Shown piece by piece: positions 10,688-62,018 of a DNA stretch of 64,000 nt; position 1 is the first letter of the stretch; every line of letters begins with the position of its first letter. A program made the position numbers and the translations under genes. Source of the stretch: Dehalococcoidia bacterium (lineage in GTDB: Bacteria > Chloroflexota > Dehalococcoidia > Dehalococcoidales > E44-bin46); assembly GCA_030605575.1 (NCBI GenBank), contig JAUWIC010000063.1:254-64253 (forward strand). The letters run 5' to 3'. The notes under the pieces are model-generated. The model did not search any database. It was not told where the DNA came from and worked only from the letters and a program-made list of their open reading frames with translations.

Positions 10688-10709
10688 TAGAAGGATAAAA
10701 ACAGCCAAG

Positions 10710-12938: not shown

Positions 12939-12946
12939 TAGGCGAA

Positions 12947-13360
12947 ATGGGATTTGAAAAATTCGGTGTCGTCAGCTTCACCTCGGATGCCAAAGTAGCC
13001 CCATTGGTGGACTATCTGGAAAAAGGCAAGGTTATGATGACGAAGTGCCAGCAGTGCGGAAAAGCGTTCTTTCCTCCGAAAGCTGATTGCCCGCGGTGTG
13101 TGTCCAGTAACGTGGAATGGCTTGAGATCAGCAGTATCGGCACATTGCTTGCTTTTACCGTAGTCAATTACGGTCCGTCAGGATTTGAGAACGATACACC
13201 TTATACTCTGGGGATAGCTGAATTCGAGGAAGGGGTGAAGGTACTGGGTCGAGTAAGCAAGGCGATTAGTCCCGAGGATGTCAAGGTCGGAATGAGAGTC
13301 AAGCTGGCTCCGCTAAAGCTAGCCAATGAACAAATTATCTATGAGATGCAAAGGAGCTAG
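12947..13360 (+). CDS. DUF35 OB-fold / zinc-ribbon acyl-CoA-associated protein
   Basis: A zinc ribbon CQQCGKAFFPPKADCPRC is followed by an OB-fold-length C-terminus. It lies immediately after the thiolase-like gene. Confidence 0.8.
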   Translation: MGFEKFGVVSFTSDAKVAPLVDYLEKGKVMMTKCQQCGKAFFPPKADCPRCVSSNVEWLEISSIGTLLAFTVVNYGPSGFENDTPYTLGIAEFEEGVKVLGRVSKAISPEDVKVGMRVKLAPLKLANEQIIYEMQRS

Positions 13361-13423
13361 TGCCATGATTGAGTAAGGTTAAAGACTAAGGCTATTGGAT
13401 TCAATTCTGTAGAGGAGGTAAAA

Positions 13424-14494
13424 ATGGCCAAGATACCAGATAAAATTGAAACATGGCAGATGACCGAGCCGGGGAAACTAGCTAGAGTGAGCCTCGATGT
13501 CCCTGAATTACAGGCGGGAGAGGTACTGGTTGAGATTGCTGGCTGCGGGGTATGCCATACCGACCTGGGATACTTTTATGATGGCGTACCTACGGTGACC
13601 AAACCACCGCTAACCCTGGGGCACGAAATTAGCGGCATAGTAATAGCTGGCGATGGCGGATGGATAGGCAAAGAGGTAATTGTACCCGCGGTAATGCCCT
13701 GCAATAAATGCCCTATTTGCGCCAGTGGCCGAGGCAATCGCTGCCTGGCCCAGAAGATGCCGGGAAATAGTATGGGGATTTACGGCGGCTTTTCCAGTCA
13801 TATTGTGGTGCCCTCTGAAGATTTGTGTGTGATTGAGGATAAGAAGGGAACGCCGCTCCCGCACTTCGCCGTAATTGCCGATGCCGTAACTTCGCCTTAT
13901 CAGGCAGCAATAAGGGCTGAGGTTAAACCCGGGGATTTGACTGTTGTGGTTGGTGCTACCGGAGGTCTCGGCATCTATGCTACTCAAATTTGTTCCGCCT
14001 TAGGGGCTAAAGAGGTGGTTGGCATTGCCCGCAATCCCAAGAAGCTGGAACGAGCTCTGAAATATGGGGCCACCCGTACTATTAGTACCGTGGATAAGAG
14101 TGCCAGGGAGGTTAGGGATGAATTCCGGAGCTACAGCAAAGAAAAGGGGCTGCCCGTTTATGGCTGGAAGATATTTGAGTGGAGTGGCACAGCAGTAGGG
14201 CAAGAGATTGCTTTAGACCTGCTGTCCTTCGTTTCCACACTGATTATAGCCGGTTATGGGATGCAAAAGAACGAATATCAGCTATCAAGGTTAATGGGAT
14301 TTGACGCCGACATCAAGGGCACCTGGGGTTGTTTACCTAAATACTATCCCGAAGTCCTCAAGATGGTCCTGGAAAAGAAAATAGAAATAGAGCCCTTTAT
14401 CGAGACCAGGCCAATGAGCCAGATTCAGCAAGCATTTGAAGATGTCCACAAGGGGGGATTGGACACAAGGATAGTGCTAATCCCCGACTTTTAA
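13424..14494 (+). CDS. had: Zn-dependent alcohol dehydrogenase family; probable 6-hydroxycyclohex-1-ene-1-carbonyl-CoA dehydrogenase (Had/BamQ-like)
   Basis: It has GCGVCHTDL, GHEISG and the NAD motif GATGGLG. The functional call rests on its position directly upstream of the oah-like gene. Confidence 0.65.
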   Translation: MAKIPDKIETWQMTEPGKLARVSLDVPELQAGEVLVEIAGCGVCHTDLGYFYDGVPTVTKPPLTLGHEISGIVIAGDGGWIGKEVIVPAVMPCNKCPICASGRGNRCLAQKMPGNSMGIYGGFSSHIVVPSEDLCVIEDKKGTPLPHFAVIADAVTSPYQAAIRAEVKPGDLTVVVGATGGLGIYATQICSALGAKEVVGIARNPKKLERALKYGATRTISTVDKSAREVRDEFRSYSKEKGLPVYGWKIFEWSGTAVGQEIALDLLSFVSTLIIAGYGMQKNEYQLSRLMGFDADIKGTWGCLPKYYPEVLKMVLEKKIEIEPFIETRPMSQIQQAFEDVHKGGLDTRIVLIPDF

Positions 14495-14526
14495 CTTAAC
14501 TAAATAAAAAATAATGGAGGTATTAA

Positions 14527-15669
14527 ATGGCTTTAGACTGGATACCAAGGGACAATGTATTAAAAGACCATCAGCTTTTCGGCGATGAGCACTTGGGCAC
14601 CGAGCCACCGTGCACCATGTTTGAGAAGAAGCCGCTGATTAACCCTAACACTGGGGGGGAGGTTGAGGGTCTTTATACGGCCTGGGTCACCCTCAACAAT
14701 CCTGCCCAGTATGGTTCCTACACTACAGAAATGGTAAAGGGAGTTCAGGCCGGTATGCACAAGGCATCAATGGACAGGAGTGTCGTTGCCACCATATTTA
14801 CTGGCACCGGTGACCGGGCATTTTGCACCGGTGGTAATACCAAAGAATATGCCGAGTATTACACCAAGAGACCAAAGGAGTATGCCGACTACATGGACCT
14901 TTTCTCAGGTATGGTGGATGGCATCCTGAAGAGCCGGGTTCCGGTAATCTGTCGGTGTAACGGCATGCGGGTCGCTGGCGGTCAGGAGATTGGTCAAGCT
15001 TGCGACCTTACTGTAGCGGCTGATACTGCTCAATTCGGTCAGGCAGGGACAAGGCATGGTTCTACGCCAACCGGCGGCTCCAGCGATTTTCTGCCGTGGC
15101 AGTTGCCAACCACCGAACTGGCAATGTGGAACTGCTTCTCCAATGAAATGTGGAGCGCTTACAAGATGGAAAGGCTGGGCTTCATCACCAAGGCTGTGCC
15201 GATTAAGAAGAACGACAAGGGGGAGTGGGTAAGAGACCCGAGGGTTATCACTGATAAATATGTGGAGAACGGTGAGATAGTTTACGGTGAACTTAGGAAA
15301 GGGGACGAATTAAAACAGGCTAAGGATACTCTAAAGGGGCTTCAAACTGACTGGTCGCTGCTTGACGACTACATAAATAGAATGGTCTGGACCATAGCCA
15401 ACCTCATGCCTCTCTGCCTGATGACGACCGTTGAGTCTATAAGAATGAAGAAGAAGTCCTTCTGGGATGATACTAAAGTTTATTCCATGTACTGGCTGGC
15501 AGCCAATATGAATGCCGAAGCCTGGCTCGGCTTCAATGCCTTCAACACTTCAGACCTCACCGGTCAAAGGACTATAGATTTCATCAAGTACCGCCAGCTT
15601 GTAGCGCAGGGACACCAGTATGATGATGCGTTGATGGAAGCCGTTATGCCCAAACTCAAGCCACAGTAG
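14527..15669 (+). CDS. oah: 6-oxocyclohex-1-ene-1-carbonyl-CoA hydrolase (Oah/BamA-like ring-cleaving crotonase)
   Basis: This is a 380-aa enlarged crotonase. The stretches HLGTEPPC...GLYTAWVTLNNP..YGSYTTEMVKGV and GDRAFCTGGNTKEYAEYY match my memory of Oah/BamA. That match is recalled, not computed. Confidence 0.7.
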   Translation: MALDWIPRDNVLKDHQLFGDEHLGTEPPCTMFEKKPLINPNTGGEVEGLYTAWVTLNNPAQYGSYTTEMVKGVQAGMHKASMDRSVVATIFTGTGDRAFCTGGNTKEYAEYYTKRPKEYADYMDLFSGMVDGILKSRVPVICRCNGMRVAGGQEIGQACDLTVAADTAQFGQAGTRHGSTPTGGSSDFLPWQLPTTELAMWNCFSNEMWSAYKMERLGFITKAVPIKKNDKGEWVRDPRVITDKYVENGEIVYGELRKGDELKQAKDTLKGLQTDWSLLDDYINRMVWTIANLMPLCLMTTVESIRMKKKSFWDDTKVYSMYWLAANMNAEAWLGFNAFNTSDLTGQRTIDFIKYRQLVAQGHQYDDALMEAVMPKLKPQ

Positions 15670-15691
15670 TTGAGCTCATCAAATTAGTAAT

Positions 15692-15727
15692 AGAAAGCCC
15701 GGGGTACACTCGGGCTTTCTATTTTTC
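15692..15727 (+). terminator. Rho-independent terminator after oah
   Basis: AGAAAGCCCG / CGGGCTTTCT form a 10-bp stem with a 9-nt loop, followed by ATTTTT. Confidence 0.6.
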
Positions 15728-15731
15728 CCGT

Positions 15732-15760
15732 TTGACAAAGAGATACGCATGGGCTAGCAT
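15732..15760 (+). promoter_or_regulatory. Sigma70-like promoter (TTGACA-N17-TAGCAT)
   Basis: TTGACA lies at 15732-15737 and TAGCAT at 15755-15760, about 90 nt upstream of the 15852 start. Confidence 0.4.
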
Positions 15761-15851
15761 TGTTGAGGTCAGGTATGCCATCCTACGTACCGCGTTCTAA
15801 CCGAGGACATTACGGTAAATAACAGGTCAAACAGCATTCAGAGGAGAAGAT

Positions 15852-16622
15852 ATGGAGTTTCAAAATATTACCTTGGAGAAGCAGGAAGGCATAGCCAAAC
15901 TCACTATTAACCGACCGCCGGTTAATGTAATCAATTATGATGCTCTGGTAGAAATCAATGCTGCCCTGGAAGAGTTAGGCAAGGATGAAGCGACGAAGGT
16001 TTTACTAATCCGCGGGAGTGGGAACCGGGCTTTCTGCGCCGGGGTAGAGGTAAAAGACCACCTTGGAGAGATGATGCCCAAGATGATGAGAGAATTTGGC
16101 AGGATGTTCCGGCTTTTGAGAAACCTGGGCAAGCCAAGCATTGCTGTGGTCAATGGTGTGGCTTTGGGGGGCGGCTGTGAGCTTGTTGCCGGCTGCGATA
16201 TGGCTATTGCCTCGGAGAAGGCTGCGCTTGGTCAGCCGGAGATAAAACTGGGTGGTTTAGCGCCGGCGGCGGCTCCGTTGTTTCCCAGGATAATGGGAGA
16301 GAAGAAGGCTTTCGAGCTTATTCTCCTGGGAGAGAACGTAAGCGCCAAGGAAGCCGAGCGAATTGGCTTAGTCAATAAAGTCGTAGCGGAAGAAGAACTG
16401 GACAGCACCGCCGAGGAACTTGCTGGCAAGTTCCTGGAGAAAAGCAGCCTCGGTGTCAGGCTCGTCAGAGACGCTTTTTATCAATGCGCTGATACCGCTG
16501 AATTCGATGAAGCTATGCAGAAAGGGGTAGAGCTGGGGATAAAGACCTGGGAAACAGAGGACGGTCAGGAAGGCTTGAAATCCTTCCTGGAGAAAAGGAA
16601 GCCTATCTGGAAGAATAAGTGA
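15852..16622 (+). CDS. Enoyl-CoA hydratase/crotonase; possibly cyclohexa-1,5-dienecarbonyl-CoA hydratase (Dch/BamR-like)
   Basis: The crotonase fold shows GNRAFCAGVEVKDH, VNGVALGGGCELVAGCD and GQPEIKLG. The specific role is inferred from the had-oah neighbourhood. Confidence 0.8.
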   Translation: MEFQNITLEKQEGIAKLTINRPPVNVINYDALVEINAALEELGKDEATKVLLIRGSGNRAFCAGVEVKDHLGEMMPKMMREFGRMFRLLRNLGKPSIAVVNGVALGGGCELVAGCDMAIASEKAALGQPEIKLGGLAPAAAPLFPRIMGEKKAFELILLGENVSAKEAERIGLVNKVVAEEELDSTAEELAGKFLEKSSLGVRLVRDAFYQCADTAEFDEAMQKGVELGIKTWETEDGQEGLKSFLEKRKPIWKNK

Positions 16623-37617: not shown

Positions 37618-38811
37618 ATGGCAAAGAGGACGAATGCGGTAATACTTGGCGGGGGAGTGAGTAAATTCGGTGTAAGACAGGCACATTTACTTGATATGAT
37701 TCAGGAGGCAGCCAAAGCCTGCTCCGATGACATTCCGGCACTAAAGCCGACAGATATCGATGGCCTCATCGTTTGTACTACATTGGCGGGGAGGCATTCC
37801 AATGCCCTTAACACAGCTCCTCTTGTGGTTCACAGATTAGGATTAAGGCCAACGTCGATTTGTATCAGGCTGGATACCCTGTGTGCCGGCTCCAATTCCG
37901 GGATTATTGTGGCCAAGGGACTGGTAGAAAGCGGTATTTCTGACATAGTTCTGGTGACCGGGGCGGAGAAGGTTTATCTACCCCAGAGATGGGAAACAAA
38001 CTATACACAACTAATGGTAAATGACCATGACTGGGACTCCGCCATGGGGTTAGGGGTACCCCCTCCGTTTTTCGCTATGATTGCCAGAATGCATATGAAG
38101 CGCTACGGGACGACCAAAGAACAAATGGCGCATGTTTCCGTAGCCAATTACAATTATGGCTCAACCAATCCCAACGCACACTTTTATCCGAGGACGCTGA
38201 CCATAGAGGAGGCGCTGAGCGCCAGGCTAATCGCTGACCCCTTTACTCTATTTGACTGCTGCCCTCTATCCGACGGTGCTTCCGCTGTTATCATTACCTC
38301 AGAAGAAAGAGCCAAAGACCTCTCGGACAGGCCGCTGGTCTATATCCGTGGTACCGGTCAGCATGCCACCCATAGTATGTCGGCAGGTTGGCCCGGCGAA
38401 ACCCCGGCCGAGTGGCCTCATCTGAAGAAAGCGGCTGAGGTAGCTTACAAAAATGCCCGGGTCAGCCCCAAGGATATAGACGTGGCACAGGTCCATGATT
38501 GCTTCACCATATCTCAGATTATAGAGATGGAAGAGCTTGGTTTCTGCCAGAAGGGAGAAGGCGGCGATTATGTAGCCTCAGGAGCCATCAATATTGACGG
38601 TGAACGCCCGATAAATACCGATGGTGGCCTTATTAGCTGTGGACATCCCTTCGGTGCCTCCGGAGCCCGCCAATCTCTCGAGCTGTGCAAGCAACTCCAG
38701 GGTAGAGCCATAAATCAGGTTAAAGACCCCAAGATTGCCCTGGCGCACAATTTAAGCGGTGCTTCGGCTCAACATACGGTGGTAATCTACGGGACGGAGC
38801 CGGTGGAATAA
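37618..38811 (+). CDS. Thiolase-like protein (SCP-x type), second copy
   Basis: It shows LDTLCAGSNSG, NTDGGLISCGHPFGASG and HNLSG. It is paired with the following DUF35 gene. Confidence 0.85.
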   Translation: MAKRTNAVILGGGVSKFGVRQAHLLDMIQEAAKACSDDIPALKPTDIDGLIVCTTLAGRHSNALNTAPLVVHRLGLRPTSICIRLDTLCAGSNSGIIVAKGLVESGISDIVLVTGAEKVYLPQRWETNYTQLMVNDHDWDSAMGLGVPPPFFAMIARMHMKRYGTTKEQMAHVSVANYNYGSTNPNAHFYPRTLTIEEALSARLIADPFTLFDCCPLSDGASAVIITSEERAKDLSDRPLVYIRGTGQHATHSMSAGWPGETPAEWPHLKKAAEVAYKNARVSPKDIDVAQVHDCFTISQIIEMEELGFCQKGEGGDYVASGAINIDGERPINTDGGLISCGHPFGASGARQSLELCKQLQGRAINQVKDPKIALAHNLSGASAQHTVVIYGTEPVE

Positions 38812-38843
38812 GCTATATTAGGATTTAGATAAGGGGAACAGAA

Positions 38844-39365
38844 ATGGCAGATATACAAAAGGCACAGATAGAAGGGACTCCAGCTCTGGACGGAAGATAC
38901 ATTTCGGAAATGGATATGTGGCCATTAGAATGCCAGGAATTCAATCGGAACTATCAGTTTTACGATAACCTCAGGGAAGGCAGGTTTACCACGACCAAGT
39001 GCCAGAAGTGTGGATATATCGCCTTCCCCCCGGGTGTGATATGCCCCAAGTGCTGGTCTGACGACCTGGAGTGGGTAGACCTGCCGCAGAGGGCCAGAGT
39101 GGTCGCTTTTACCGAAACGCAAGCCGGCGCTCCCATTGGTTTCGAGCCTCCGTTAATCATGGCCTGGCTTGATTTTGGCAAGGACAGCCCGCTGAAGCAT
39201 CTACTGGGTCGTATAATAAATTGTCCCGAAGGCAAGCTTAAAGAAGGTGATGAGGTCAAGTTTGTGGTCTTTGATGTCCCGGCACACCCGATAGAGGTCA
39301 AGAGGGAAACCAAGATATGCGACAGGGTGTATTATGCCTTTGAGCCTGTAGAAAAGGCGGCTTAA
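38844..39365 (+). CDS. DUF35 OB-fold / zinc-ribbon protein, second copy
   Basis: A zinc ribbon CQKCGYIAFPPGVICPKC is followed by an OB-fold-length C-terminus. Confidence 0.8.
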   Translation: MADIQKAQIEGTPALDGRYISEMDMWPLECQEFNRNYQFYDNLREGRFTTTKCQKCGYIAFPPGVICPKCWSDDLEWVDLPQRARVVAFTETQAGAPIGFEPPLIMAWLDFGKDSPLKHLLGRIINCPEGKLKEGDEVKFVVFDVPAHPIEVKRETKICDRVYYAFEPVEKAA

Positions 39366-39393
39366 CTATATTAAACTGAGGGGGCTGTAACCC

Positions 39394-41379
39394 ATGAAGA
39401 AGATAAAAAATATCGCTGTCCTCGGAGCCGGGGCTATGGGAGCACAGATAGGCGCCCTGGCGGCGGAAGCAGGCTACAAGGTAAAAATCAGGGATATTAA
39501 GGAGAAATTCCTGGAGCGAGGCCGTCAGACAGTCGAAGCAATGTATGACAAGCGGATTCAGAGAGGTCGTTTAACCGAGGCGGCCAGGAAGGATAATATG
39601 AGTCGGCTGAGCTTCCTTCTCGACCTGAAGGAAACGGTCAAAGACGCCGACCTTATCATAGAGGCTATACCGGAGATAATGGATTTGAAACAAAGCGTAT
39701 TAAGAGAGGTCTCGGCATTATGCCCGGAGGATACGGTTTTGGCAACCAATACCTCCTCTTTGAGCATCGCTGAGATTGCTGAGGCTGCCAAGCGGCCGGA
39801 AATGGTAGTGGGCACGCACTATTTTAACCCTCCCAGCCGGATGACCCTGCTGGAAATTGTTCACGGAGCCAAGACAAGTGACGAAGCTATTGAGATAGCC
39901 GAGCGCGCAGCTAAAGCCATGGGCAGAGCTGTAATTCATGTCAAAGATGTTCCCGGCTTCGTCGCCAACAGAATCTTCTGCAACATGGCTAACGAGGCTG
40001 ATTGGGCACTGGCCCAAAATGAAGGCAAGAGCGCGTTGGAAATAGATTCGGCAATAAAGTATAAGCTGGGGCTGCCTATGGGTATGTTTGAACTCCAGGA
40101 TGTTTTGGGCGGCGGTTCCATAGATGTGCAGTACCACGTAATGGAGTATTTCGCCTCTACTCTGGGTGAAAGCTACCGACCGGCTCCCATTCTGGCAAAA
40201 TTGTTCAAGGCTGGTCACTACGGGAAAAAGACGGGCAAGGGATACTATGATTGGTCAGAGGGCAAAACCAACGAAATTCCCATGAATGCCGGCGTGGAAT
40301 TCGACCCGATAAGATTGCTGGCGCCAGCCGTCAATGAAGCTGCCAAGTTGATTGAAACGGGAGCCACCAATAAGGAAGCAATAGACACAGCGGTACTCCT
40401 CGGGCTTAACTACCCCCGAGGTCTCCTCAGGATGGCCGACAGCACCGGCCTGGATAAGATAGTGGCTGAGCTGAACCGGCTGTATAGTACCTACAAGGAA
40501 GAAAGATACAAGTGTTCCTCGGTATTAACCGACCTGGTGGCGCAGGGGAAGCTGGGGAGAAAGACCGGAGAGGGATTTCACTCCTACGGACCGGGGGAAT
40601 ACGAGTTTGTCAAGCTTGATGTTAACCGGGAAACAAAGGTAGCCAGGCTAATCCTAAATCGGCCTTACCGTGCCAATGCCCTTAATTTTGACTTCATAAC
40701 GGAGATAGATAAAGCCTTGGACGAAGTTGAGGGGCAGGCTGATGCGCGGTGTATTGTTATCACCGGTGCCGGCGCTAATTTCTGCAGTGGTGCCGATGTC
40801 TCCGCCTTCGCCTCCGGGCAGATGAATAACGTACTGAATTTCAGCAATGCCGGCCATAATGTATTTACCAGAATTGAAACCTATTCTAGACCGGTAATAG
40901 CGGCTATCAATGGGCCAGCCATAGGCGGTGGTCTGGAGCTTGCCCTTGCCTGTGATATAAGGATAATGAACCAAACAGCCCGGCTACGTCTTCCCGAGCT
41001 GAATCTGGGACTGACTCCGGGGTGGGGCGGTATACAGCGGTTAAGCCGGTTGATTGGGGGAACACGCGCCAAAGAGATGGTGCTGTTAGCTGAGCCGGTA
41101 ATGGCCGATAAAGCCCTTGAGTGGGGATTAGTTAATTACGTCGCCGAGCCGGACAAATTTGAGGCTCTAGTAGATGATATCGCCGGCAGGCTGGCCAGTG
41201 GCGCTCCATTAGCCCAAAAACTGGCTAAGTCTACATTTTATTATGGTGCTCAAGCTGACCAAAGGACAGGCTTATTCATCGAAACCTCAGCCTCTGCCGA
41301 TATTTCTCTAACCAAAGATTTGAATGAGGGGCTTACCGCAATGTCTTACCGGCGCCAGCCTAAATTTACCGGCGAGTAA
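39394..41379 (+). CDS. Fusion protein: 3-hydroxyacyl-CoA dehydrogenase (N-terminal) + enoyl-CoA hydratase (C-terminal)
   Basis: The N-terminus shows VLGAGAMGAQIG and THYFNPPSRMTLLEIV. The C-terminus shows ITGAGANFCSGADV and AINGPAIGGGLELALACD. The domain order is the reverse of FadB. Confidence 0.9.
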   Translation: MKKIKNIAVLGAGAMGAQIGALAAEAGYKVKIRDIKEKFLERGRQTVEAMYDKRIQRGRLTEAARKDNMSRLSFLLDLKETVKDADLIIEAIPEIMDLKQSVLREVSALCPEDTVLATNTSSLSIAEIAEAAKRPEMVVGTHYFNPPSRMTLLEIVHGAKTSDEAIEIAERAAKAMGRAVIHVKDVPGFVANRIFCNMANEADWALAQNEGKSALEIDSAIKYKLGLPMGMFELQDVLGGGSIDVQYHVMEYFASTLGESYRPAPILAKLFKAGHYGKKTGKGYYDWSEGKTNEIPMNAGVEFDPIRLLAPAVNEAAKLIETGATNKEAIDTAVLLGLNYPRGLLRMADSTGLDKIVAELNRLYSTYKEERYKCSSVLTDLVAQGKLGRKTGEGFHSYGPGEYEFVKLDVNRETKVARLILNRPYRANALNFDFITEIDKALDEVEGQADARCIVITGAGANFCSGADVSAFASGQMNNVLNFSNAGHNVFTRIETYSRPVIAAINGPAIGGGLELALACDIRIMNQTARLRLPELNLGLTPGWGGIQRLSRLIGGTRAKEMVLLAEPVMADKALEWGLVNYVAEPDKFEALVDDIAGRLASGAPLAQKLAKSTFYYGAQADQRTGLFIETSASADISLTKDLNEGLTAMSYRRQPKFTGE

Positions 41380-52010: not shown

Positions 52011-54334
<2,324 letters not shown>

Positions 54335-54365: not shown

Positions 54366-54395
54366 TTGACATCCTCACACGGATTTGATTAAAAT
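54366..54395 (+). promoter_or_regulatory. Sigma70-like promoter TTGACAT-N17-TAAAAT for tubulin-like paralog 1
   Basis: TTGACA lies at 54366-54371 and TAAAAT at 54390-54395. The architecture matches the one at 57924-57953. Confidence 0.4.
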
Positions 54396-54425
54396 AACAA
54401 AGCTGAGTTAATACCGAAGGGTAAA

Positions 54426-55589
54426 ATGAAATTACTGGTTATAGGTTTTGGGCAATGTGGCGGCAGGGTTGCCGATGAGTTCATCCGGCTAGGTATAAGG
54501 GCACGCGTTGAGCGTGGGATTAATATAATTACCGGCGTCTTCGCTGTTAACACCGATGTTGCCGATTTAAGCGGGCTACTCACCATAAGGCCTGATTACC
54601 AGCATAGAATACTCATCGGGGGTCAAAAGACCGGTGGTCGTGGTGTCGGCAAAATTAACGAGCTGGGTGCCGAGATAGCCAGAGAAGATAGCGACAAGAT
54701 TATAGATGCCATCAAGACAACAGAACGACTCGCTGAGACAGACGCTTTCTTATTGATCGCTGGTGCTGCTGGTGGCACTGGCTCAGGGGCAATAGCCGCC
54801 GTAACCCAAAAATTAAAAGAGCGCTATATGGAAAAACCGATATATAACCTTATTATCCTTCCCTTTCAGCACGAGGAGGAAGTAGAGGGAAGGACTATCT
54901 ATAATTCGGCTACCTGCCTTAAATCTGCTTACTTAGTGGCCGATGCCGTAATTCTTATTGATAATCAAAGGTATATTAGTAAGAACCTCTCAATTAGAAG
55001 CAACCTGGCTAAAATCAATGCCTTAATAGCTGAGCCATTTTATAATCTACTTTGCGCCGGTGAAGAAAAAAAGCCCCAATACATTGGGTCAAGGATACTT
55101 GATGGTGGGGATATAATACAGACTCTAGCCGGGTGGACAGTGATAGGCTATAGCAAATCACAAAAAGCACGAATCAAAAACCCCTTTGATTTCAGGGACA
55201 AGATGACTGAAAGCCAAAGGGGAGCTCAAGTAATGGACAATGCCCTAAGCGAGTTATCACTCCAGTGCAACCCCAAGGATGCAGGCAGAGGACTATATCT
55301 CCTGTCGGCATCACCTAAGGAAATGGATATGAACCTGGTTAGAGACCTCGGAGCCCATCTGAAGCGTATAGCTCCCGAGGCTATAATAAGGACTGGCGAT
55401 TACCCCAGGGGGGATAGCGCAATCCATGTTACTGTAATCCTCTCTGAGCTTAGCGGTGTGAGTAAAATTGTAAACTACTTCACCCAAACGATTGAACTCG
55501 TCACCGCTCTTAAAAAGAAAAGGCAAGGAATAGAGGTCGAACATAGAGACCTTGGGGAAGCCTTTAAAGATATACCCTCGTTACTATAA
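54426..55589 (+). CDS. Tubulin/FtsZ-superfamily GTPase, CetZ-like (paralog 1)
   Basis: It shows MKLLVIGFGQCGGRVADEF (T1), GRGVGKINELGAEIA, DAFLLIAGAAGGTGSGA (T4 signature), ILIDNQRY, LDGGDIIQTLAG (T7-like) and RTGDYPRG. The C-terminal tail is DIPSLL. Confidence 0.85.
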   Translation: MKLLVIGFGQCGGRVADEFIRLGIRARVERGINIITGVFAVNTDVADLSGLLTIRPDYQHRILIGGQKTGGRGVGKINELGAEIAREDSDKIIDAIKTTERLAETDAFLLIAGAAGGTGSGAIAAVTQKLKERYMEKPIYNLIILPFQHEEEVEGRTIYNSATCLKSAYLVADAVILIDNQRYISKNLSIRSNLAKINALIAEPFYNLLCAGEEKKPQYIGSRILDGGDIIQTLAGWTVIGYSKSQKARIKNPFDFRDKMTESQRGAQVMDNALSELSLQCNPKDAGRGLYLLSASPKEMDMNLVRDLGAHLKRIAPEAIIRTGDYPRGDSAIHVTVILSELSGVSKIVNYFTQTIELVTALKKKRQGIEVEHRDLGEAFKDIPSLL

Positions 55590-55663
55590 TTAATCAAATA
55601 AGCTAGTCAGAAACAACGTTTCAGTCTCTTAGACTCGGTGTCTTATCCCGTCTCCTCAGCTAC

Positions 55664-57799
55664 CTATCCGTCTTCCGTCTTTCCCTTTATCTTGGCTTGT
55701 TTATTTTTGGGGGTTTCTTCTCCGGTCTCCTCGACTTGTTTGGCTTTATTAGCCGCATACATTCTGGCTAGAAACTCCAAACGGGATTTAACTTCCCCAC
55801 CTGTTTCCTTAGCCCGGCTTATCGCTTCCTCAGCAACCTCCTCAGCCAACTCACCTGTTTCCTCAGCGTGGCTTATTGCTTCCTCAACCGCCTCCTCAAC
55901 CACTTTACGTGTTCCTTCAGCCTGGCTTATCGCCAACTCAAATGCTCTTATTGATGACTCAGCTGCCGCCTTGGCTGCTTTTCTCGCCGCCTCAGCCGCC
56001 GCCTTGGCCTCCCTTTTAGCCGCTTCAGCCGCCTCCTTAGACTCTTTACCTACTGCCTCAGCGCTGGCTATCGCTTCCTGAGATACTCTGGTGGCTTCCT
56101 CAACCGCTTTCTGAGATTCCTTTATCGCCGTCTCAGTAACCTCCTTAGCCGACTTACCTGTCTCCTCCACCCGGCTTACCGCTTCCTGATATACTCTGCT
56201 GGCTTCCTCAACCGCCTCCCGAATCTCCTGGCTTATTTCCTCAGCCCTGGCTATCGCTGCCTGCGAAGCCTGCCTTATCGACTCAGCAGCCTTCTTTGAC
56301 TCCTCACGCACTCCCTCAGCACCAACTACAGCCTTCTCAAAGGTTCCAGCCGCCGTCTCAACGGTCTCTTGAGACCATTTAGTTGTTTCTTCCGCCCGGA
56401 TTATCGCCCTATCAAGGGTCTTGGTTAATGCCGCCGTGGACTCTTCAAGTGCCTCACTTATCTTCTCAGCCCTCTCCACCGCTTGCCGAGAGGCTTTAGC
56501 TGCCTCCCCGGCGGCCTTCTTAGCTGATTTGCTTATCTCTTGCACCCTGGATGCCGCTTCCTGAGATACCATTCTGGCTTCCTCAGCCATCTCCCTAGAT
56601 TCTTTAGCTACTGCCTCAGCCCTAGCCATCGCTTCCTGAGACACTCTGGTGGCTTCCTCAACCGCCTCCTCAACCACTTTACGTGTTCCTCCAGCCTGGC
56701 TTATCGCCGACTCAAACGCTCCTATCGCCGCCTCAGCTGCCGCCCTGGCCTCCCTTTTAACCGCTTCAGCCGCCTCCTTAGACTCTTTAGCTACTGCCTC
56801 AGCCCTGGCTATCGCTTCATGAGACACTCTGGTGGCTTCCTCAACCACCTTCTGAGATTCATTTATCGCCGCCTCAGTAACCTCCTTAGTCGACTTACCT
56901 GTCTCCTCCACCGTCCTTACCGCTTCCTGAGACATCTTAGTCGCCGCCTTAACTGCCTCCCGAATCTCCCGGCTTATTTCCTCAGCCCTGGCTGCCGCTG
57001 CCTGCGAAGCCTGCCTCACCGACTCAGCAGCCTTCTTTGACTCCTCACGCACTCCCTCAGCACCGACTATAGCCTCCTCAAAGGTCCCAACCGCCGTCTC
57101 AACGGTCTCTCTAGACCATTTAGCTGTTTCTTCCGCCTGGGTTATCACCCTATCAAAGGTCTTGGCTGATGCCGCAATGGACTCCTCAAGTACCTTGCTT
57201 ATCTTGTTAGCCCTTTCCACTGCTTTCCGAGAGGCTTTGGTTGCCTCCTCAGCGGCTTTCTTAGCTGATTTGCTCATCTCTTGCACCCTGGATGCCGCTT
57301 CCTGAGATACTCTTTTAGCTTCCTCAGCCATCTCCTCAGCCAATGTGCCTGTTTTCTCAGCCCGTCTTACCGCGGCCGCAGACTCCTTTATTGACGCCGC
57401 CGCAGCTTCCTTAACCGCCTTGACCGTCTTCTCAGTTTTAGCCGCCGATTCTTCAAAGGTTCGGGTTAAAACCTCAATCGCTTCCTTAGCCCGCCTGACT
57501 GCTTCCTCAGCTCTGGCTATCGCCTCCCCAGATGCCCTTGATGATGCTTCAGCAAGCTCCTTAGCCTCCTTGCTTACTTTCTCAGCCTTGCCCACCGCCT
57601 TCTGAGAGGCTTTTTGGGCTTGCTCTGCCACTTTCCTGGCTGACTTACCTATTCCCTCAGCCCTGGCTATTGCTTCTTGAGCTGCGCTTTTTGATGCCTC
57701 AGCTGCTCCCTTGGCTGACTTACTTAGTATCTCAGCCCTAGCTGCTGCTTCCTCAACCGCCTCAGTATCGTTTTCCATAGCTCTTAATAACCCTCCCAT
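55664..57799 (-). CDS. 711-aa Ala/Glu/Lys/Ser-rich all-helical repeat protein (about 28 x 25-residue repeats); function unknown
   Basis: This is a long uninterrupted ORF. An xRAE-type triplet recurs every 25 residues. I saw no signal peptide or TM segment, and the C-terminus is basic. The opposite-strand ORFs are shadows of it. Confidence 0.8.
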   Translation of the reverse strand: MGGLLRAMENDTEAVEEAAARAEILSKSAKGAAEASKSAAQEAIARAEGIGKSARKVAEQAQKASQKAVGKAEKVSKEAKELAEASSRASGEAIARAEEAVRRAKEAIEVLTRTFEESAAKTEKTVKAVKEAAAASIKESAAAVRRAEKTGTLAEEMAEEAKRVSQEAASRVQEMSKSAKKAAEEATKASRKAVERANKISKVLEESIAASAKTFDRVITQAEETAKWSRETVETAVGTFEEAIVGAEGVREESKKAAESVRQASQAAAARAEEISREIREAVKAATKMSQEAVRTVEETGKSTKEVTEAAINESQKVVEEATRVSHEAIARAEAVAKESKEAAEAVKREARAAAEAAIGAFESAISQAGGTRKVVEEAVEEATRVSQEAMARAEAVAKESREMAEEARMVSQEAASRVQEISKSAKKAAGEAAKASRQAVERAEKISEALEESTAALTKTLDRAIIRAEETTKWSQETVETAAGTFEKAVVGAEGVREESKKAAESIRQASQAAIARAEEISQEIREAVEEASRVYQEAVSRVEETGKSAKEVTETAIKESQKAVEEATRVSQEAIASAEAVGKESKEAAEAAKREAKAAAEAARKAAKAAAESSIRAFELAISQAEGTRKVVEEAVEEAISHAEETGELAEEVAEEAISRAKETGGEVKSRLEFLARMYAANKAKQVEETGEETPKNKQAKIKGKTEDG
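55880..57336. repeat. Intragenic tandem duplication (two ~0.7-kb copies) superimposed on a 75-bp periodicity
   Basis: TAGCTGATTTGCT(T/C)ATCTCTTGCACCCTGGATGCCGCTTCCTGAGATAC occurs at 56521 and 57262, an offset of 741 bp. One copy carries a 33-bp indel. The CTCAGCC-type motif recurs at about 56240, 56315, 56390, 56465, 56539, 56615 and 56689. Confidence 0.85.
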
Positions 57800-57858
57800 A
57801 CTTTAAAAATCTTATTTAGCCTCCCAACTAAAAGTTTAACATTCTGGCCGTATCTTCT

Positions 57859-57887
57859 ATTTTATGATAGGCTATTTAGTTTTGCAA
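57859..57887 (-). promoter_or_regulatory. Sigma70-like promoter TTGCAA-N17-TAAAAT for the repeat-protein gene
   Basis: Read on the minus strand, TTGCAA lies at 57887-57882 and TAAAAT at 57864-57859. Confidence 0.35.
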
Positions 57888-57923
57888 TACAAACCCGGTT
57901 AAAGATAAAAAAATATATAGTAA

Positions 57924-57953
57924 TTGACATTATTCTATAAATATGCCTAAAAT
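57924..57953 (+). promoter_or_regulatory. Sigma70-like promoter TTGACAT-N17-TAAAAT for tubulin-like paralog 2
   Basis: TTGACA lies at 57924-57929 and TAAAAT at 57948-57953, within an AT-rich 182-bp divergent region. Confidence 0.4.
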
Positions 57954-57981
57954 AATGAAATTCTTAATAATGGGGTGAGAA

Positions 57982-59157
57982 ATGAAATTAGTAGTCATAG
58001 GTTTCGGACAATGCGGTGGCAGAATTGCCGATGAGTTTGCCCGACTAAATAGAAGGGCGCGTAGTTATCGTGGGATTGAGATAGTTACTGGTGCTTTCGC
58101 CGTAAACACCGATGCTGCCGATTTAAGCGGGCTAACCACCATAAGGTCTGATTACCAGCACCGAATCCTCATTGGGGGTCGGAAGACTAGCGGTCACGGC
58201 GTAGGTAAGATAAATGAACTGGGGGCTGAGATAGCCAACGAGGACGGCGACAAGATCATCGATGCTATAAGAAGCGCCCGGCGTTTCTTTGAGTCAGATG
58301 CCTTCTTACTAATCGCCTCTTCCGCCGGTGGCACCGGCTCGGGGGGAATACCAATAATAACGCAACTCATAAAAGAGCGCTACATGGATAAACCGGTATA
58401 CAATCTTATTGTCCTTCCCTTTGAGCACGAAGAGACTACCGAGGAAAGAACTATCTATAACTCAGCGGTATGCCTTAAATCAGTTAACGCAGTGGCTGAT
58501 GCCATAATTCTGGTTGACAATCAAAGGTATGTTAGAAAGGACTTCTCACTTAGAAACAACCTGGCCAAAATAAATGCCCTAATGGTGGAACCATTCTACA
58601 ACTTACTCTGCGCCGGTGAGGAGAAAAAGCCAAAGCACATCGGGGCCAGGATGCTTGATGCCGGAGACATAATACAGACTTTGGTAGGATGGACAGTAAT
58701 AGGTTATGGTAAATCACCGCTACCGCTAATCACCCTTCCCTTTGAGCGAAAGCGCAACTTCAGGCAAAAAAGCACCGAAACCCACAAGGGAATCCAAGCC
58801 ATGGATGAAGCCATAAGTGAGCTGTCACTCAGGTGTAACCCCAAGGATGCCGGCAGAGCCCTATACCTCCTTTCGGCACCAGCTAAAGAAATGAATATGG
58901 ACTTAATCAAGGAGCTGGGAGACTATCTAAGAGACATAGCCCCAGAGGCTACAATAAGAAATGGCGATTACCCCCGAGAAAGAGGGGTTCTGGATGTAGC
59001 TGTAATCCTGTCGGAACTCAACACTGTGGACAAGGTCAAGGACTACTATAATAAATCGGCTGGCTTTATCTCCGAGGTTAAACAGAGGCAGGAAGAAATA
59101 AAGGGCAAACTTAAAGAAATAGAAGATGCTTCACAAGATATACCCTCGTTATTATAA
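57982..59157 (+). CDS. Tubulin/FtsZ-superfamily GTPase, CetZ-like (paralog 2)
   Basis: It shows MKLVVIGFGQCGGRIADEF, GHGVGKINELGAEIA, DAFLLIASSAGGTGSGG, ILVDNQRY, LDAGDIIQTLVG and RNGDYPRE. The C-terminal tail is DIPSLL. Confidence 0.85.
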   Translation: MKLVVIGFGQCGGRIADEFARLNRRARSYRGIEIVTGAFAVNTDAADLSGLTTIRSDYQHRILIGGRKTSGHGVGKINELGAEIANEDGDKIIDAIRSARRFFESDAFLLIASSAGGTGSGGIPIITQLIKERYMDKPVYNLIVLPFEHEETTEERTIYNSAVCLKSVNAVADAIILVDNQRYVRKDFSLRNNLAKINALMVEPFYNLLCAGEEKKPKHIGARMLDAGDIIQTLVGWTVIGYGKSPLPLITLPFERKRNFRQKSTETHKGIQAMDEAISELSLRCNPKDAGRALYLLSAPAKEMNMDLIKELGDYLRDIAPEATIRNGDYPRERGVLDVAVILSELNTVDKVKDYYNKSAGFISEVKQRQEEIKGKLKEIEDASQDIPSLL

Positions 59158-59205
59158 CTAGCCAGTCCGAGCCATTTCAAACCACGCTTACTGGCTCAGT
59201 TTCCT

Positions 59206-59240
59206 ATACCCCTCTTCCGGTGAAGAGGGGTATTTATTTT
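59206..59240 (+). terminator. Rho-independent terminator after paralog 2
   Basis: ATACCCCTCTTC-CGGT-GAAGAGGGGTAT forms a perfect 12-bp stem, followed by TTATTTT. Confidence 0.7.
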
Positions 59241-59327: not shown

Positions 59328-60899
59328 ATGGCTTCTCAAGTTTTTTATCGTAAGTGGCGTCCTCAAAGCTTAGCCGAGGTAGTTGGTCAGGAACAGGTAA
59401 CCCAGACACTACGTAATGCCCTCAATAGTGATCGTGTATCTCACGCCTACCTTTTTTGTGGTCCACGAGGAACAGGCAAGACCACCACTGGCCGCATCCT
59501 GGCTAAGGCAGTAAATTGCCTGACCAATGGTAAGGGTGAACCGTGTAATGCTTGCCCTATGTGCCAGGCAATAAGCGAGGGCAGGGCTCTGGATGTCATA
59601 GAAATTGATGCTGCCAGCAACCGTGGCATTGACGAAATCCGAGACCTTCGTGCCCGGGTCAACTATGCGCCTAACCAAGCCCGTTATAAAGTCTATATTA
59701 TAGATGAAGTTCATATGCTGACTAAAGAAGCCTCCAACGCCCTGTTGAAGACGCTTGAGGAACCACCACCACACGTTATTTTTATTCTGGCTACTACCGA
59801 AGCCCATAAAGTCCTACCCACCATTTCGTCACGGTGCCAGCGTTTCGATTTCCGGCGCATCTCCCAGGCCGACATAGTCTCCAAACTCACCCGCATTTGT
59901 AGCCAGGAAGGCATTGATATGGAGCCAGAGGCATTACGGCTTATCGCTAAGAGTGCCACCGGTAGCCTGCGAGACGCTGAAAACCTGCTGGAACAGCTAA
60001 CTACCTATTATGGCTCAGAGGTCGGACTGCAGCAGGTCCAGGCTATCCTGGGCGCCACCGGAGACTGGCGAGTCAAAGAGGTGGTAAAGCACATTATAAA
60101 TAATGATATCTCGGCCGGGATAACAACGATAAACAGTGTTAATAACGATGGCCTGGATTTACGCCAATTCAATCGGGAACTGGTGGAATACCTCAGAGGC
60201 TTACTGCTAATAAAGACCGGCTCCGACCAAACTATAGACTTCACTGCCGAGGATATAGCTGAACTGAAGGCTCTAGCCGCTAAAGCCTCGCTAGCTCAAA
60301 TATTGAAGGCAGTCAAGCTCTTCGGTCAGCTTGAGCTTGGCCTTGATAACTACTCCACCCTGCCCCTAGAGCTAGCCCTGGTTGACTGCACCCTAACCCC
60401 GGAGGGGGAAAAGGGAAGCCCGGCTGTAGAAGCTGAGCCTGAATTTCGTCAGCCGGTAACAACGGCTCCCCCGCCAGCGGCTCCACCCCAGCCAACAGTC
60501 AAACCTGAGCCAGCTAACCTCCCCACCCCACCAGCACCAAAGGCTACTATTCCCCCGCCGGAACCGGGTAGTGAAATTGAACAAATGAGAGCCAATTGGA
60601 AGCAGGTTATTGAGCAAGCTCCAGAAAATACCAAAAGAACCCCGGCTATTGCTATTCTTAGAAGTGCCGGGGTTAAGCCGGTGGCAATTGAAGACGATAC
60701 CATAGTCTTAGCCTTTAGATATCCATATCATAAGGAGCAAATAGAGAAGCCGGAAAATCAACAGATAGCCGAAAAAATCATAGGTAACTTCCTCGGGCGT
60801 CCCTGCCATGTGCGTTGTATTTATGAGCCGGAAGCTAATCACCTGCTGCAGGCAGCACTAAAGATGGGCGCCCAAATTATCGATGTGGAGGAGAAATGA
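59328..60899 (+). CDS. dnaX: DNA polymerase III subunit gamma/tau
   Basis: It has Walker A GPRGTGKTT, DEVHML, a Zn module CNACPMC, a SRC-type region and a Pro-rich linker. Confidence 0.9.
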   Translation: MASQVFYRKWRPQSLAEVVGQEQVTQTLRNALNSDRVSHAYLFCGPRGTGKTTTGRILAKAVNCLTNGKGEPCNACPMCQAISEGRALDVIEIDAASNRGIDEIRDLRARVNYAPNQARYKVYIIDEVHMLTKEASNALLKTLEEPPPHVIFILATTEAHKVLPTISSRCQRFDFRRISQADIVSKLTRICSQEGIDMEPEALRLIAKSATGSLRDAENLLEQLTTYYGSEVGLQQVQAILGATGDWRVKEVVKHIINNDISAGITTINSVNNDGLDLRQFNRELVEYLRGLLLIKTGSDQTIDFTAEDIAELKALAAKASLAQILKAVKLFGQLELGLDNYSTLPLELALVDCTLTPEGEKGSPAVEAEPEFRQPVTTAPPPAAPPQPTVKPEPANLPTPPAPKATIPPPEPGSEIEQMRANWKQVIEQAPENTKRTPAIAILRSAGVKPVAIEDDTIVLAFRYPYHKEQIEKPENQQIAEKIIGNFLGRPCHVRCIYEPEANHLLQAALKMGAQIIDVEEK

Positions 60900-61189
60900 A
60901 TCCATCCTTCCTAAATCAAGCCCGGGAACTTAAATCAAAGCTAGACAAAGCCCAAAAAGAGTTAAGCGACACTATCGTAGAAGCCAGCTCAGGTAAAGGC
61001 GCAGTTAAGGTTACTATTAACGGTCAGCAAAAATTACAGTCAATAAAAATTTCACCCCAGGTGATAAACCCCGACAAGGCAGAAGTCCTGGAAGAATTAG
61101 TGTTAACAGCGGTAAGCGATGCCATTGCCAAATCTCAAAAGGTTGCCGCCAAGTGTCTGGGGGGCATTAAATTCCACGGGCTAACCTAA
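60896..61189 (+). CDS. ybaB: YbaB/EbfC-family nucleoid-associated protein
   Basis: It is 97 aa and overlaps the dnaX stop by 4 nt. It sits in the canonical dnaX-ybaB-recR order. Confidence 0.85.
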   Translation: MNPSFLNQARELKSKLDKAQKELSDTIVEASSGKGAVKVTINGQQKLQSIKISPQVINPDKAEVLEELVLTAVSDAIAKSQKVAAKCLGGIKFHGLT

Positions 61190-61239
61190 TACATGAGGCT
61201 CTTTATTTTAGAAGGAGTTTAAAGGGACTAATATAAAAA

Positions 61240-61382
61240 GAGTGTCAAAAAGAGGCGGTTTGGCAGGAGAAGTTTGAAGGGGTAAATATAAAGGAAAGTC
61301 AAAGAGAGGCGGAGCCTCTCTTATATAAACCAGTTCCCCTTCCCCTTGATAAGGGGAAGGGGATAAAGGGGATAGGGTCTCC
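61240..61382. repeat. Intergenic GC-hairpin repeat unit plus degenerate partial copy
   Basis: AGAGAGGC-GGA-GCCTCTCT and CCCCTTCCCCTT-GAT-AAGGGGAAGGGG are followed by ATAAAGGGGATAGGGTC. GTCAAA(A)AGAGGCGG is duplicated at 61243 and 61299. Confidence 0.6.
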
Positions 61383-61400
61383 AAACGAAAACTTAAAGAG

Positions 61401-62018
61401 GTGAGGTTGGACCAGAATCTCATACCGACCACTGAATCGGTGTATAAGCTCATCCAGGAGCTTAACAAACTGCCTGGCATTGGACCCAAGAGTGCCCAGC
61501 GACTTGCCTACTACCTATTGCGTGCCCCTGAAGAGCAAGCCAAGCTTCTAGCTGATGCCATTCTGTCAATAAAACGGAAGACCAAGTTATGCTCGGTTTG
61601 CTTTAATGTTACCGACTCTGACCCCTGCTCCATCTGCCGCAATAACCAGCGCGACCGCACTAAGATTTGCATTGTTGAACAGCCACAGGACATTCTAGCC
61701 CTGGAGCACACCCGGATTTATAACGGACTGTACCACGTGCTCCACGGCGCTATCTCACCTACCGAAGGGGTAGGCACTGACGATATAAGAATCAAGGAGC
61801 TTATGAACCGGTTACAGGCTGGCTCAATAGATGAAGTCATCCTGGCGACCAACCCCAACCTTGAGGGAGAACAGACCGCCCTGTATCTAAGCCAACTCAT
61901 TTCACCCCTGGGCATCAGGGTTACCCGCCTGGCTAGGGGACTACCCTTCGGCACCGAGCTGGAATATGCCGACGATGTTACCCTGACCCGAGCCATTGAG
62001 GGCAGGCAGGAGTTTTAA
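61401..62018 (+). CDS. recR: Recombination protein RecR
   Basis: It has [17 protein letters not shown] (HhH), a Zn finger CSVCFNV...CSIC and a Toprim region. The start is either GTG 61401 or TTG 61407. Confidence 0.9.

Follow-up and report, generated by a model that had tools for sequence, protein, structure and literature searches.

CetZ-like tubulin-superfamily GTPases at a conserved Dehalococcoidales locus, and a helical repeat protein that accompanies one of them

CetZ proteins form the third major branch of the tubulin superfamily. In a bacterial genome, a precedent for two tubulin paralogs accompanied by a helical-repeat accessory protein is the BtubA/BtubB-BtubC (Bklc) system of Prosthecobacter. 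CetZ is described in reviews as archaea-specific (PMC9856176, PMC11621097). Genes resembling cetZ are not new in Dehalococcoidia, because Santana-Molina et al. already listed 'CetZ-like' sequences in Chloroflexota-Dehalococcoidia in a 2023 phylogenomic survey (PMC9871819). Here we analyse 64,000 nucleotides (nt) of DNA from a Dehalococcoidia bacterium (assembly GCA_030605575.1, contig JAUWIC010000063.1, positions 254 to 64,253 of the forward strand; "the window"), in which two cetZ-like paralogs, P1 and P2, lie on either side of the gene of a long helical repeat protein, REP, encoded on the opposite strand. A preliminary description of this DNA had proposed an undescribed three-gene filament-plus-scaffold system, possibly acquired from archaea and acting in cell shape or division. 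The reading frames concerned are as follows.

54426 to 55589, forward strand: P1, CetZ-like GTPase of the tubulin/FtsZ superfamily, 387 amino acids (aa); open reading frame and profile matches
57982 to 59157, forward strand: P2, CetZ-like GTPase of the tubulin/FtsZ superfamily, 391 aa, adjacent to dnaX; open reading frame and profile matches
55664 to 57778, reverse strand: REP, Ala/Glu/Lys repeat protein predicted to be all-helical, 704 aa when read from the ATG at 57778
55664 to 57799, reverse strand: longest open reading frame of REP, 711 aa, with its start at 57799

P1 and REP are convergent, that is, tail-to-tail. The positions given for P1 and P2 in the preliminary description were exact, and the 711-aa repeat protein it had reported on the other strand exists as a reading frame; translation probably begins at the second ATG, 57778, which has GGGAGGG upstream, so that a 704-aa product is expected. 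The end-to-end alignment of the two paralogs was likewise borne out (65% identity, 80% positives, E = 8e-180, without internal rearrangement), and every tubulin/FtsZ GTPase hallmark quoted for them is present in both, including MKL[LV]VIGFGQCGGR, GHGVGKINELGAEIA, AGGTGSG, DNQRY, LD[GA]GDIIQTL and GDYPR.

Profile searches assigned P1 and P2 to CetZ. The Pfam Tubulin domain (PF00091) was matched at 6e-32 by P1 and 1.5e-32 by P2, and CetZ_C (PF21011) at 7.6e-15 and 1.3e-15, the latter match scoring 55.3 and 57.8 bits, where the gathering score is 21.6 bits, and covering profile positions 3-177 of 180. The FtsZ equivalog TIGR00065 gave 56.0 bits for P1 and 61.4 for P2, in the N-terminal domain only, where 295.2 bits are needed, and no FtsZ_C domain was matched in either protein by Pfam profile search; ordinary FtsZ was rejected as a reading. 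Relatives of P1 and P2 are often labelled 'cell division protein FtsZ' by JGI and NCBI. TubZ and PhuZ were also rejected: the TubZ family profile Tubulin_2 (PF13809) scored 13-18 bits, under its cut-off of 27, and relatives are absent from bacterial plasmids and phages.

Among sequences of the PDB searched with phmmer, the best match to P2 was CetZ1 of Haloferax volcanii (4b46; 2.2e-43, 152 bits, residues 1-378 aligned), followed by CetZ2 (4b45; 1e-28, 104 bits) and the M. thermophila CetZ (3zid; 3e-15, 60 bits). FtsZs followed at 3.5e-10 or weaker (43 bits or less), and gamma-tubulin, an Asgard tubulin and BtubB came last at about 1e-6 (about 30 bits; BtubB 29 bits). An AlphaFold2 (AF2) model of P2 was built from a shallow alignment (79% identity or more) and had a mean predicted local distance difference test score (pLDDT) of 50.6 with the C-terminal domain unmodelled; its top three Foldseek matches were again CetZ1, CetZ2 and the M. 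thermophila CetZ, which at this model confidence is weak corroboration. As predicted proteins, P1 and P2 are CetZ-like and not FtsZ, TubZ or BtubA/B, as the preliminary description had judged from motifs and layout: both domains, the motifs, the tail at the C-terminus and the closest structures solved are those of CetZ. The archaeal host that usually goes with the name is missing, the host being a member of the Dehalococcoidales (Chloroflexota).

P2 matches more than 7,500 database proteins, and the named ones come from Dehalococcoidia, Dehalococcoidales or Chloroflexota. To place the locus among its relatives, one genome per GTDB species was scanned with two peptide patterns. This yielded 264 relatives, of which the best 80 by similarity to P2 form the locus set used below (L-numbers), so that frequencies are biased to close relatives. 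By gene order, all 80 are Dehalococcoidia metagenome-assembled genomes (MAGs), and they include the closed 1.03-Mb chromosome CP070810.1. The closest relative, DAOUFA010000034.1, has 98% amino-acid identity for P2, DnaX and RecR. More than 60 independent MAGs share the backbone eno-gap-[cetZ-like]-dnaX-ybaB-recR, with gap upstream of the cetZ-like gene in 49 of 70 evaluable loci and dnaX 3' of the P2 orthologue in 64 of 74. In the window this backbone, and the sites between its genes, read as follows.

52029 to 54334, forward strand: eno and gap, upstream synteny backbone
54366 to 54395, forward strand: promoter-like TTGACA-N18-TAAAAT 5' of P1, 11 of 12 consensus positions, a consensus match only
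57924 to 57953, forward strand: promoter-like TTGACA-N18-TAAAAT 5' of P2, 11 of 12 consensus positions, a consensus match only
59206 to 59233, forward strand: terminator-like hairpin between P2 and dnaX, 12-bp stem followed by a T run
59328 to 62018, forward strand: dnaX-ybaB-recR, downstream synteny backbone

The genes for enolase, glyceraldehyde-3-phosphate dehydrogenase, DnaX, YbaB and RecR, and those for NAD-dependent LigA and Pth upstream, were all found where the preliminary description had named them, and its statement that the flanking DNA is unambiguously bacterial agrees with the Dehalococcoidales synteny. A chimeric assembly of bacterial and archaeal DNA was ruled out by the gene order in more than 60 independent MAGs and in CP070810.1 and by a G+C content that is even over the region. 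We regard it as hardly credible that the locus is an artefact of any kind, whether a chimera or a set of ordinary FtsZ genes. The frequent database name would fit the latter; the TIGR00065 scores far under the cut-off and the coexistence of a true FtsZ, described below, do not. The preliminary description had also given each of the three genes its own promoter. Sites of the required kind precede P1 and P2, whereas the REP gene has only weak matches (9 of 12 consensus positions), and matches to a consensus are not proof of a promoter.

Three of the loci (L022, L027 and L041) are labelled 'Deltaproteobacteria bacterium' and carry the Dehalococcoidales gap-cetZ-like-dnaX-ybaB-recR order at 62-75% identity, which points either to mislabelled bins or to contigs that were put in the wrong bin.

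The position of P2-type genes 5' of dnaX-ybaB-recR (64 of 74 loci), together with the fact that YbaB is a nucleoid-associated protein, would be explained if the GTPases formed a DNA-related cytomotive system of the TubZ/PhuZ kind, working in chromosome segregation or organisation. We consider this very improbable. P2 has its own promoter-like site and is separated from dnaX by a strong terminator-like hairpin, and the genes upstream are glycolytic, which makes the gene order look like a matter of inheritance and not of function. Moreover, Tubulin_2 is sub-threshold, homologues are absent from bacterial plasmids and phages, and no TubR-like adaptor gene lies nearby.

The preliminary description had treated P1, REP and P2 as one three-gene system. 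REP-like reading frames (396-750 aa, more than 45% Ala+Glu+Lys, similar by tblastn to REP of the window) were found in 29 of the 80 loci. Two or more tubulin genes accompany REP in 24 of these 29, and the remaining five contigs break off within REP or shortly beyond it; the triad or a rearranged form of it is thus present in 24 to 29 of the 80 loci. The arrangement of the window is seen in about 21 loci. In L065 and L067 the order is P2-P1-REP, and in L033 P2 is followed by REP on the forward and P1 on the reverse strand. In a neighbour-joining tree of 109 proteins the tubulins adjacent to REP formed one clade of 23 members, including P1 of the window, with a bootstrap of 96/100. P1-type genes of other genomes were convergent and tail-to-tail with REP in 22 of 22 cases, those in L033, L065 and L067 included, and among the 80 loci REP lacked an adjoining tubulin gene only at contig ends. 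The MAG binchicken_co294_13 carries P2-dnaX on one contig (L015) and a second P2-type gene with P1 and REP, in the order P2'-P1-REP, on another (L067); it is therefore the P1-type gene, and not the dnaX locus, that REP accompanies. Most relatives have P2 only at the locus, without P1 or REP. From these gene orders P2 is better described as the probable ancestral or older copy, fixed beside dnaX, and P1 with REP as a putative accessory pair. Of the proposed three-gene system, then, the P1-type gene and REP stand as a tight convergent unit, and P2 is separable from them.

A third, divergent paralog lies directly after gap and upstream of the P2-type gene in five loci (L027, 6764-7933; L031, from 6764; L041, from 3076; L056, from 3037; L071, from 1283). 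It has about 37-45% identity to P1 and P2, a GQCGCN T1 loop and the tail LPTLD or LPSLEF, and it keeps T4 and T7. In L056 and L071 it stands beside a P1-REP-P2 triad, and the three loci that have two tubulin genes without REP have the third paralog instead. The number of CetZ-type GTPases per locus is thus two in the window and up to three in relatives.

Three parts of the REP gene are referred to below.

57644 to 57778, reverse strand: conserved N-terminal head of REP, from the alignment of 26 orthologues
55977 to 57017, reverse strand: internal tandem duplication of REP, 741 nt or 247 aa, from repeat-family and protein-offset analysis
55757 to 55786, reverse strand: C-terminal amphipathic motif SRLEFLARMY of REP, from the alignment of 26 orthologues

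REP consists of 24% Ala, 19% Glu and 10% Lys, with a single proline, and sequence analysis found neither a signal peptide nor a transmembrane segment. Its repeats have a basic period of 75 nt or 25 aa, with variants of 18, 36 and 47 aa. The hydrophobic periodicity of 3.58 residues (25/7) is a very strong signal and points to long, uninterrupted amphipathic helices that bear a stripe rich in Ala. A single-sequence AF2 model was about 95% helix in segments mostly of 60-110 residues, with a tertiary structure that is unreliable (pLDDT 58.6, predicted template modelling score 0.29). The giant size of REP in the window is due to a recent duplication of 741 nt: the core copies at 56718-57017 and 55977-56276 are 89% identical, and the closest orthologue (L007) has 460 aa, or about 704 minus 247. 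Changes in REP length seem to come about as blocks of repeats are gained and lost.

Alignment of 26 orthologues, all from intact reading frames of 396-750 aa, showed a repeat core that diverges quickly, down to 34% identity, between conserved ends. The head reads IGAxEKAVARAExLSKSAxEAAEA, and the C-terminal motif [ED]xRLx[FS]L[AST][RKQ]M[YF] is present in 26/26, followed by a variable charged tail. Searches of REP against Pfam and NCBIfam gave sub-threshold noise only and no TPR match, and the PDB sequence search found no relative. The whole protein had no matches in a set of 5.8 billion proteins, where low-complexity proteins probably swamped the candidates, and the C-terminal 55 aa retrieved from the database only three fragments, named 'hypothetical protein'. 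Judged by its orthologues, REP is a real, conserved and essentially unannotated family of predicted proteins.

One could also take REP for an unrelated neighbour, a hydrophilic helical protein of the LEA, phasin or apolipoprotein type, with the system reduced to the tubulin paralogs. Convergent transcription, the low-complexity composition and the want of a detectable domain, a PDB relative or more than a few database homologues would all be expected on that account. We think it improbable, given that REP accompanies P1-type genes in 22 of 22 cases, in at least three gene orders and at a second genomic site, that it occurs without a tubulin neighbour only at contig ends, and that its terminal motifs are conserved though the core diverges rapidly.

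A second Ala/Glu/Lys-rich helical family of about 490-560 aa, absent from the window, occurs a few kb from cetZ-like, dnaX or recR genes in L056 (14911, forward strand), L058 (7909, forward strand) and L074 (3, reverse strand). The complete copies in L056 and L058 end in a transmembrane helix, FLLMIALAVGGAIIAAIAISVGISSLGP; the C-terminus of the L074 copy is cut by the contig end. Within the window, 56001-58000 is the only stretch in which GC skew (-0.32) and AT skew (-0.27) fall far below zero, because the coding strand of REP, the minus strand, is rich in purines (GAA/GCA/AAG); no replication feature is implied.

The origin of the bacterial genes was considered with neighbour-joining trees of a modest and partly unlabelled sample, which held no sequences of the Thermococcales, whose CetZs bound the CetZ clade in Brown & Duggin (2023), and few labelled archaeal ones: CetZ1 and CetZ2 of H. 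volcanii, three haloarchaeal megaplasmid paralogs and one Nitrososphaerales protein. The FtsZ outgroup consisted of two sequences, from E. coli and B. subtilis. A bacterial clade, made up of the three Dehalococcoidia paralog types and 17 metagenome representatives, excluded the labelled archaeal CetZ proteins in 99/100 bootstraps. The reciprocal split was recovered in 53/100 only, so that the bacterial clade may be either sister to archaeal CetZ or nested within it. The suggestion that the genes were possibly acquired from archaea is not established by these trees. No P2 homologues were found in bacterial plasmids or phages, and the only relatives in PLSDB were 32 haloarchaeal megaplasmid CetZ records at 32-34% identity.

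On one such plasmid, pCBA1229 of Halorubrum sp. CBA1229 (L085), a CetZ paralog at 263770-264942 lies about 2 kb from orc1/cdc6, with an IS6 transposase gene between them. Distant 418-aa CetZ_C proteins with the tail LLPDL and 38% identity to P2 were seen in L083 and L084 (8001-10305), in surroundings rich in transposases, resolvases and group II introns. The CetZ_C gene is always followed by one for a 327-aa protein, which has a transmembrane helix at its N-terminus and a linker rich in Pro and Ala; the two may be another pair of a tubulin and a membrane partner.

Two short elements of P1 and P2 bear on their function.

55101 to 55112, forward strand: acidic residues of the P1 T7 loop, D226-G-G-D229, from alignment to CetZ1
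58657 to 58668, forward strand: acidic residues of the P2 T7 loop, D226-A-G-D229, from alignment to CetZ1
55569 to 55586, forward strand: C-terminal tail DIPSLL of P1, from the sequence
59137 to 59154, forward strand: C-terminal tail DIPSLL of P2, from the sequence

GQCG (T1), GGTGSG (T4), DNQR or DNER and the T7 DxGD are conserved across the three paralog types. In the T7-like LD[GA]GDIIQTL, where the preliminary description had placed the acidic residues needed for GTP hydrolysis, D226 and D229 are present, and D229 (in GDIIQTL) is aligned to E218 of H. volcanii CetZ1, the catalytic T7 residue, whose replacement in E218A leads to hyperstable polymers (bioRxiv 10.1101/2024.04.08.588506). Given the conserved T1, T4 and T7 motifs, all three paralog types should bind GTP and complete their active site in the polymer.

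Nearly all of 108 related proteins end in D-[IVL]-P-[ST]-L-[LI]. The tails of archaeal CetZ-like sequences are LESLF (CetZ1), ELESLF, DIDSLL and NLDSLV, and in CetZ1 mutation of LESLF abolished rod formation (bioRxiv 10.1101/2024.04.08.588506). The canonical FtsZ of Dehalococcoidales, as found in related loci, ends in ELDVPSFLR or ELSIPAFMR, the core of which resembles DIPSLL. In bacterial FtsZ the C-terminal peptide is the dock for FtsA, ZipA and SepF.

The 64-kb window contains neither ftsZ nor ftsA, P1 and P2 lying between gap and dnaX. A canonical ftsZ is present in the order, both in related loci and in published genomes. L023 (3817-9986) and L030 (3848-9930) have the gene order mraZ-rsmH-ftsA-ftsZ-cetZ-like-nrdR with a P2-type cetZ-like gene, and in L063 (549-6095) a distance of 2 kb separates a P2-type gene from ftsA-ftsZ, encoded on the opposite strand. 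In these three loci the true FtsZ has a GGGGCNA T1 loop. L023 and L012, a gap-cetZ-like-dnaX locus, are from the same MAG, so this one genome encodes a true FtsZ as well as two or more CetZ-like proteins. Dehalococcoidales and SAR202 have lost dcw/peptidoglycan genes and kept mraZ-mraW-ftsA-ftsZ, and the wall of Dehalococcoides mccartyi is S-layer-like (PMC10608941). D. mccartyi 195 has ftsZ (DET0343) beside ftsA and two further 'FtsZ' genes, DET0589 and DET0636 (PMC5102406). With canonical ftsZ-ftsA in the order, the CetZ-like proteins are therefore additional to FtsZ and do not replace it. Pure cultures of D. mccartyi strain BTF08 had abundant FtsZ, 'FtsZ/Tubulin GTPase' btf_0551 and a hypothetical protein from a neighbouring gene, and all three were reduced in co-cultures, where cells become barrel-shaped (PMC8163811).

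The likeness of the tail core to that of FtsZ (D[IV]PS[FL]L), the cetZ-like gene immediately 3' of ftsA-ftsZ in L023 and L030, and the shift in abundance together with FtsZ in D. mccartyi (PMC8163811) would also fit proteins dedicated to division. P1 and P2 would then be extra FtsZs in the Z-ring, held by a shared FtsA-binding tail, with REP as a regulator of the Zap or EzrA type and no separate role in shape. Extra FtsZs have precedents in archaeal FtsZ1/FtsZ2 and in plastid FtsZ1/FtsZ2. We judge this explanation unlikely: only 3 of 80 loci adjoin or lie near ftsZ, archaeal CetZ proteins have a similar tail, and CetZ1, the nearest characterised homologue, is needed for rod shape and motility and not for division (bioRxiv 10.1101/2024.04.08.588506, PMC11621097).

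On balance we hold it probable that the locus encodes part of a bacterial CetZ-like cytoskeleton on the envelope of wall-less cells, with P2 as the core filament, P1 and REP as an accessory filament and scaffold, and DIPSLL as a docking tail. P1 and P2 would be GTP-dependent filament formers from a monophyletic bacterial CetZ-like branch that became fixed in the peptidoglycan-less, S-layered Dehalococcoidales alongside canonical FtsZ and FtsA. P2 would be the core copy, passed on in its place between gap and dnaX, and P1 an older duplicate moving as a pair with REP. REP, predicted to be cytoplasmic, helical and variable in length, may bind, bundle or space P1-containing filaments or tie them to the envelope. 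The DIPSLL tail would mimic the FtsZ peptide of the order and is a likely dock for a membrane tether, FtsA being the most obvious candidate, or for REP. Envelope shaping or constriction in wall-less cells, affecting cell shape, division geometry or both, would be the most likely role.

Several observations weigh against this reading. Most relatives have only a P2-type gene and no REP at the locus, so REP is dispensable for a core function. P1 and REP are convergent and do not form an operon, and gene adjacency alone is not proof of a physical interaction between them. The low AF2 confidence (pLDDT 58.6 for REP and 50.6 for P2) leaves the interfaces without structural support. Behind the amphipathic motif of REP there is often an acidic tail, an uncommon feature in a helix that targets membranes. 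Finally, the likeness between the tail and the FtsZ peptide could be ancestral to the superfamily and not a sign of a shared receptor. A bolder version of the cytoskeletal reading has an ancient monophyletic bacterial CetZ branch sharing its FtsA tether with FtsZ, and REP acting as a length-variable 'ruler' that sets envelope geometry in one sub-lineage. This is possible, and we put it forward tentatively; if true, CetZ-type cytoskeletons would not be limited to archaea, and this one would amount to a wall-independent morphogenetic machine that either crossed between the domains or is older than their split.

The preliminary description had called the module undescribed. This holds for the REP pairing, the paralog structure and the function; the genes were listed in PMC9871819 and, as an 'FtsZ/Tubulin GTPase', the protein was detected by D. 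mccartyi proteomics (PMC8163811). As far as the literature searched goes, what seems to be new is the near-universal syntenic presence in Dehalococcoidales, the three paralog clades, the strict pairing of P1 and REP, the REP family itself, the likeness of the tail to the FtsZ peptide and the occasional cetZ-like position beside ftsZ. The same literature yielded no dedicated partner of an archaeal CetZ, and REP, strictly co-inherited, is a first candidate for a CetZ-associated factor. The FtsZ-like tail suggests a concrete tether in FtsA. A large, vertically inherited bacterial branch of CetZ, expressed in D. mccartyi, would make the control of shape and division geometry in wall-less prokaryotes testable, and it speaks to the wider question of whether CetZ-type filaments generally solve this problem, be it through transfer between domains or through shared ancestry. 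The Dehalococcoidales are key organohalide-respiring bacteria in bioremediation, and a link between unusual cell shapes and altered amounts of a tubulin-like GTPase has already been drawn (PMC8163811).

The remaining genes of the window are metabolic and housekeeping genes of an ordinary bacterial kind, among them those for NAD-dependent LigA, Pth, TyrRS and SerA, beta-oxidation-like genes and one for a PAS histidine kinase. At 1135-6361, 6943-16622 and 37618-41379 we noted a multi-PAS/GAF histidine kinase of 1,364 aa together with a response regulator of the OmpR type. Downstream of these come a gene for an aldehyde:ferredoxin oxidoreductase and two gene clusters with thiolase, ChsH2-like, enoyl-CoA hydratase and 3-hydroxyacyl-CoA dehydrogenase genes. 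The thiolase/ChsH2-like clusters suggest that the organism degrades fatty acids or compounds resembling steroid side chains. Rfam and tRNA scans of the window returned one tRNA-Thr and nothing else.

Compared with known systems, TubZ/TubR and PhuZ share with P1 and P2 the tubulin superfamily, as cytomotive filaments in bacteria with adaptor proteins; P1 and P2 differ in being chromosomal and vertically inherited, in their sub-threshold Tubulin_2 score and in having no DNA-binding adaptor present. BtubA/B-BtubC is similar in that two tubulin-superfamily paralogs are encoded with a helical-repeat protein, as are P1, P2 and REP. However, BtubA/B are true tubulins encoded in an operon (29 bits to P2), whereas P1 and REP are not co-directional, and BtubC is a TPR protein, whereas REP has a 25-residue amphipathic-helix repeat without a TPR match. 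Bacterial FtsZ has the same GTPase fold and a similar docking-peptide core (DVPSFL against DIPSLL), and some of the paralogs lie beside ftsA-ftsZ; unlike FtsZ, P1 and P2 fail TIGR00065, have no FtsZ_C, carry GQCGG and not GGGG in T1, and have the tail at the extreme C-terminus. REP is a long helical protein, as EzrA and ZapB are, but has no sequence similarity to Zap proteins, EzrA or SepF. Closest are the archaeal CetZ proteins. P1 and P2 differ from them in their bacterial host, their separate clade (99/100), an M-loop shorter than that of CetZ1, a gap/dnaX or sometimes ftsA-ftsZ neighbourhood, and the dedicated REP. They share with H. volcanii CetZ1 and CetZ2 (4b46, 4b45) and with M. thermophila CetZ (3zid) the pair of Tubulin and CetZ_C domains and a length of about 390 aa, and with CetZ1 a full-length alignment (35% identity in the Foldseek alignment, E = 2e-43). 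Common to P1, P2 and archaeal CetZ are also the MKLxxIGxGQxGG start without N-terminal extension, GHGVGxxNELGAEIA, GDYP near the end, an acidic T7 residue at the E218 position, a short hydrophobic tail (LESLF against DIPSLL) and hosts that lack peptidoglycan and have an S-layer.

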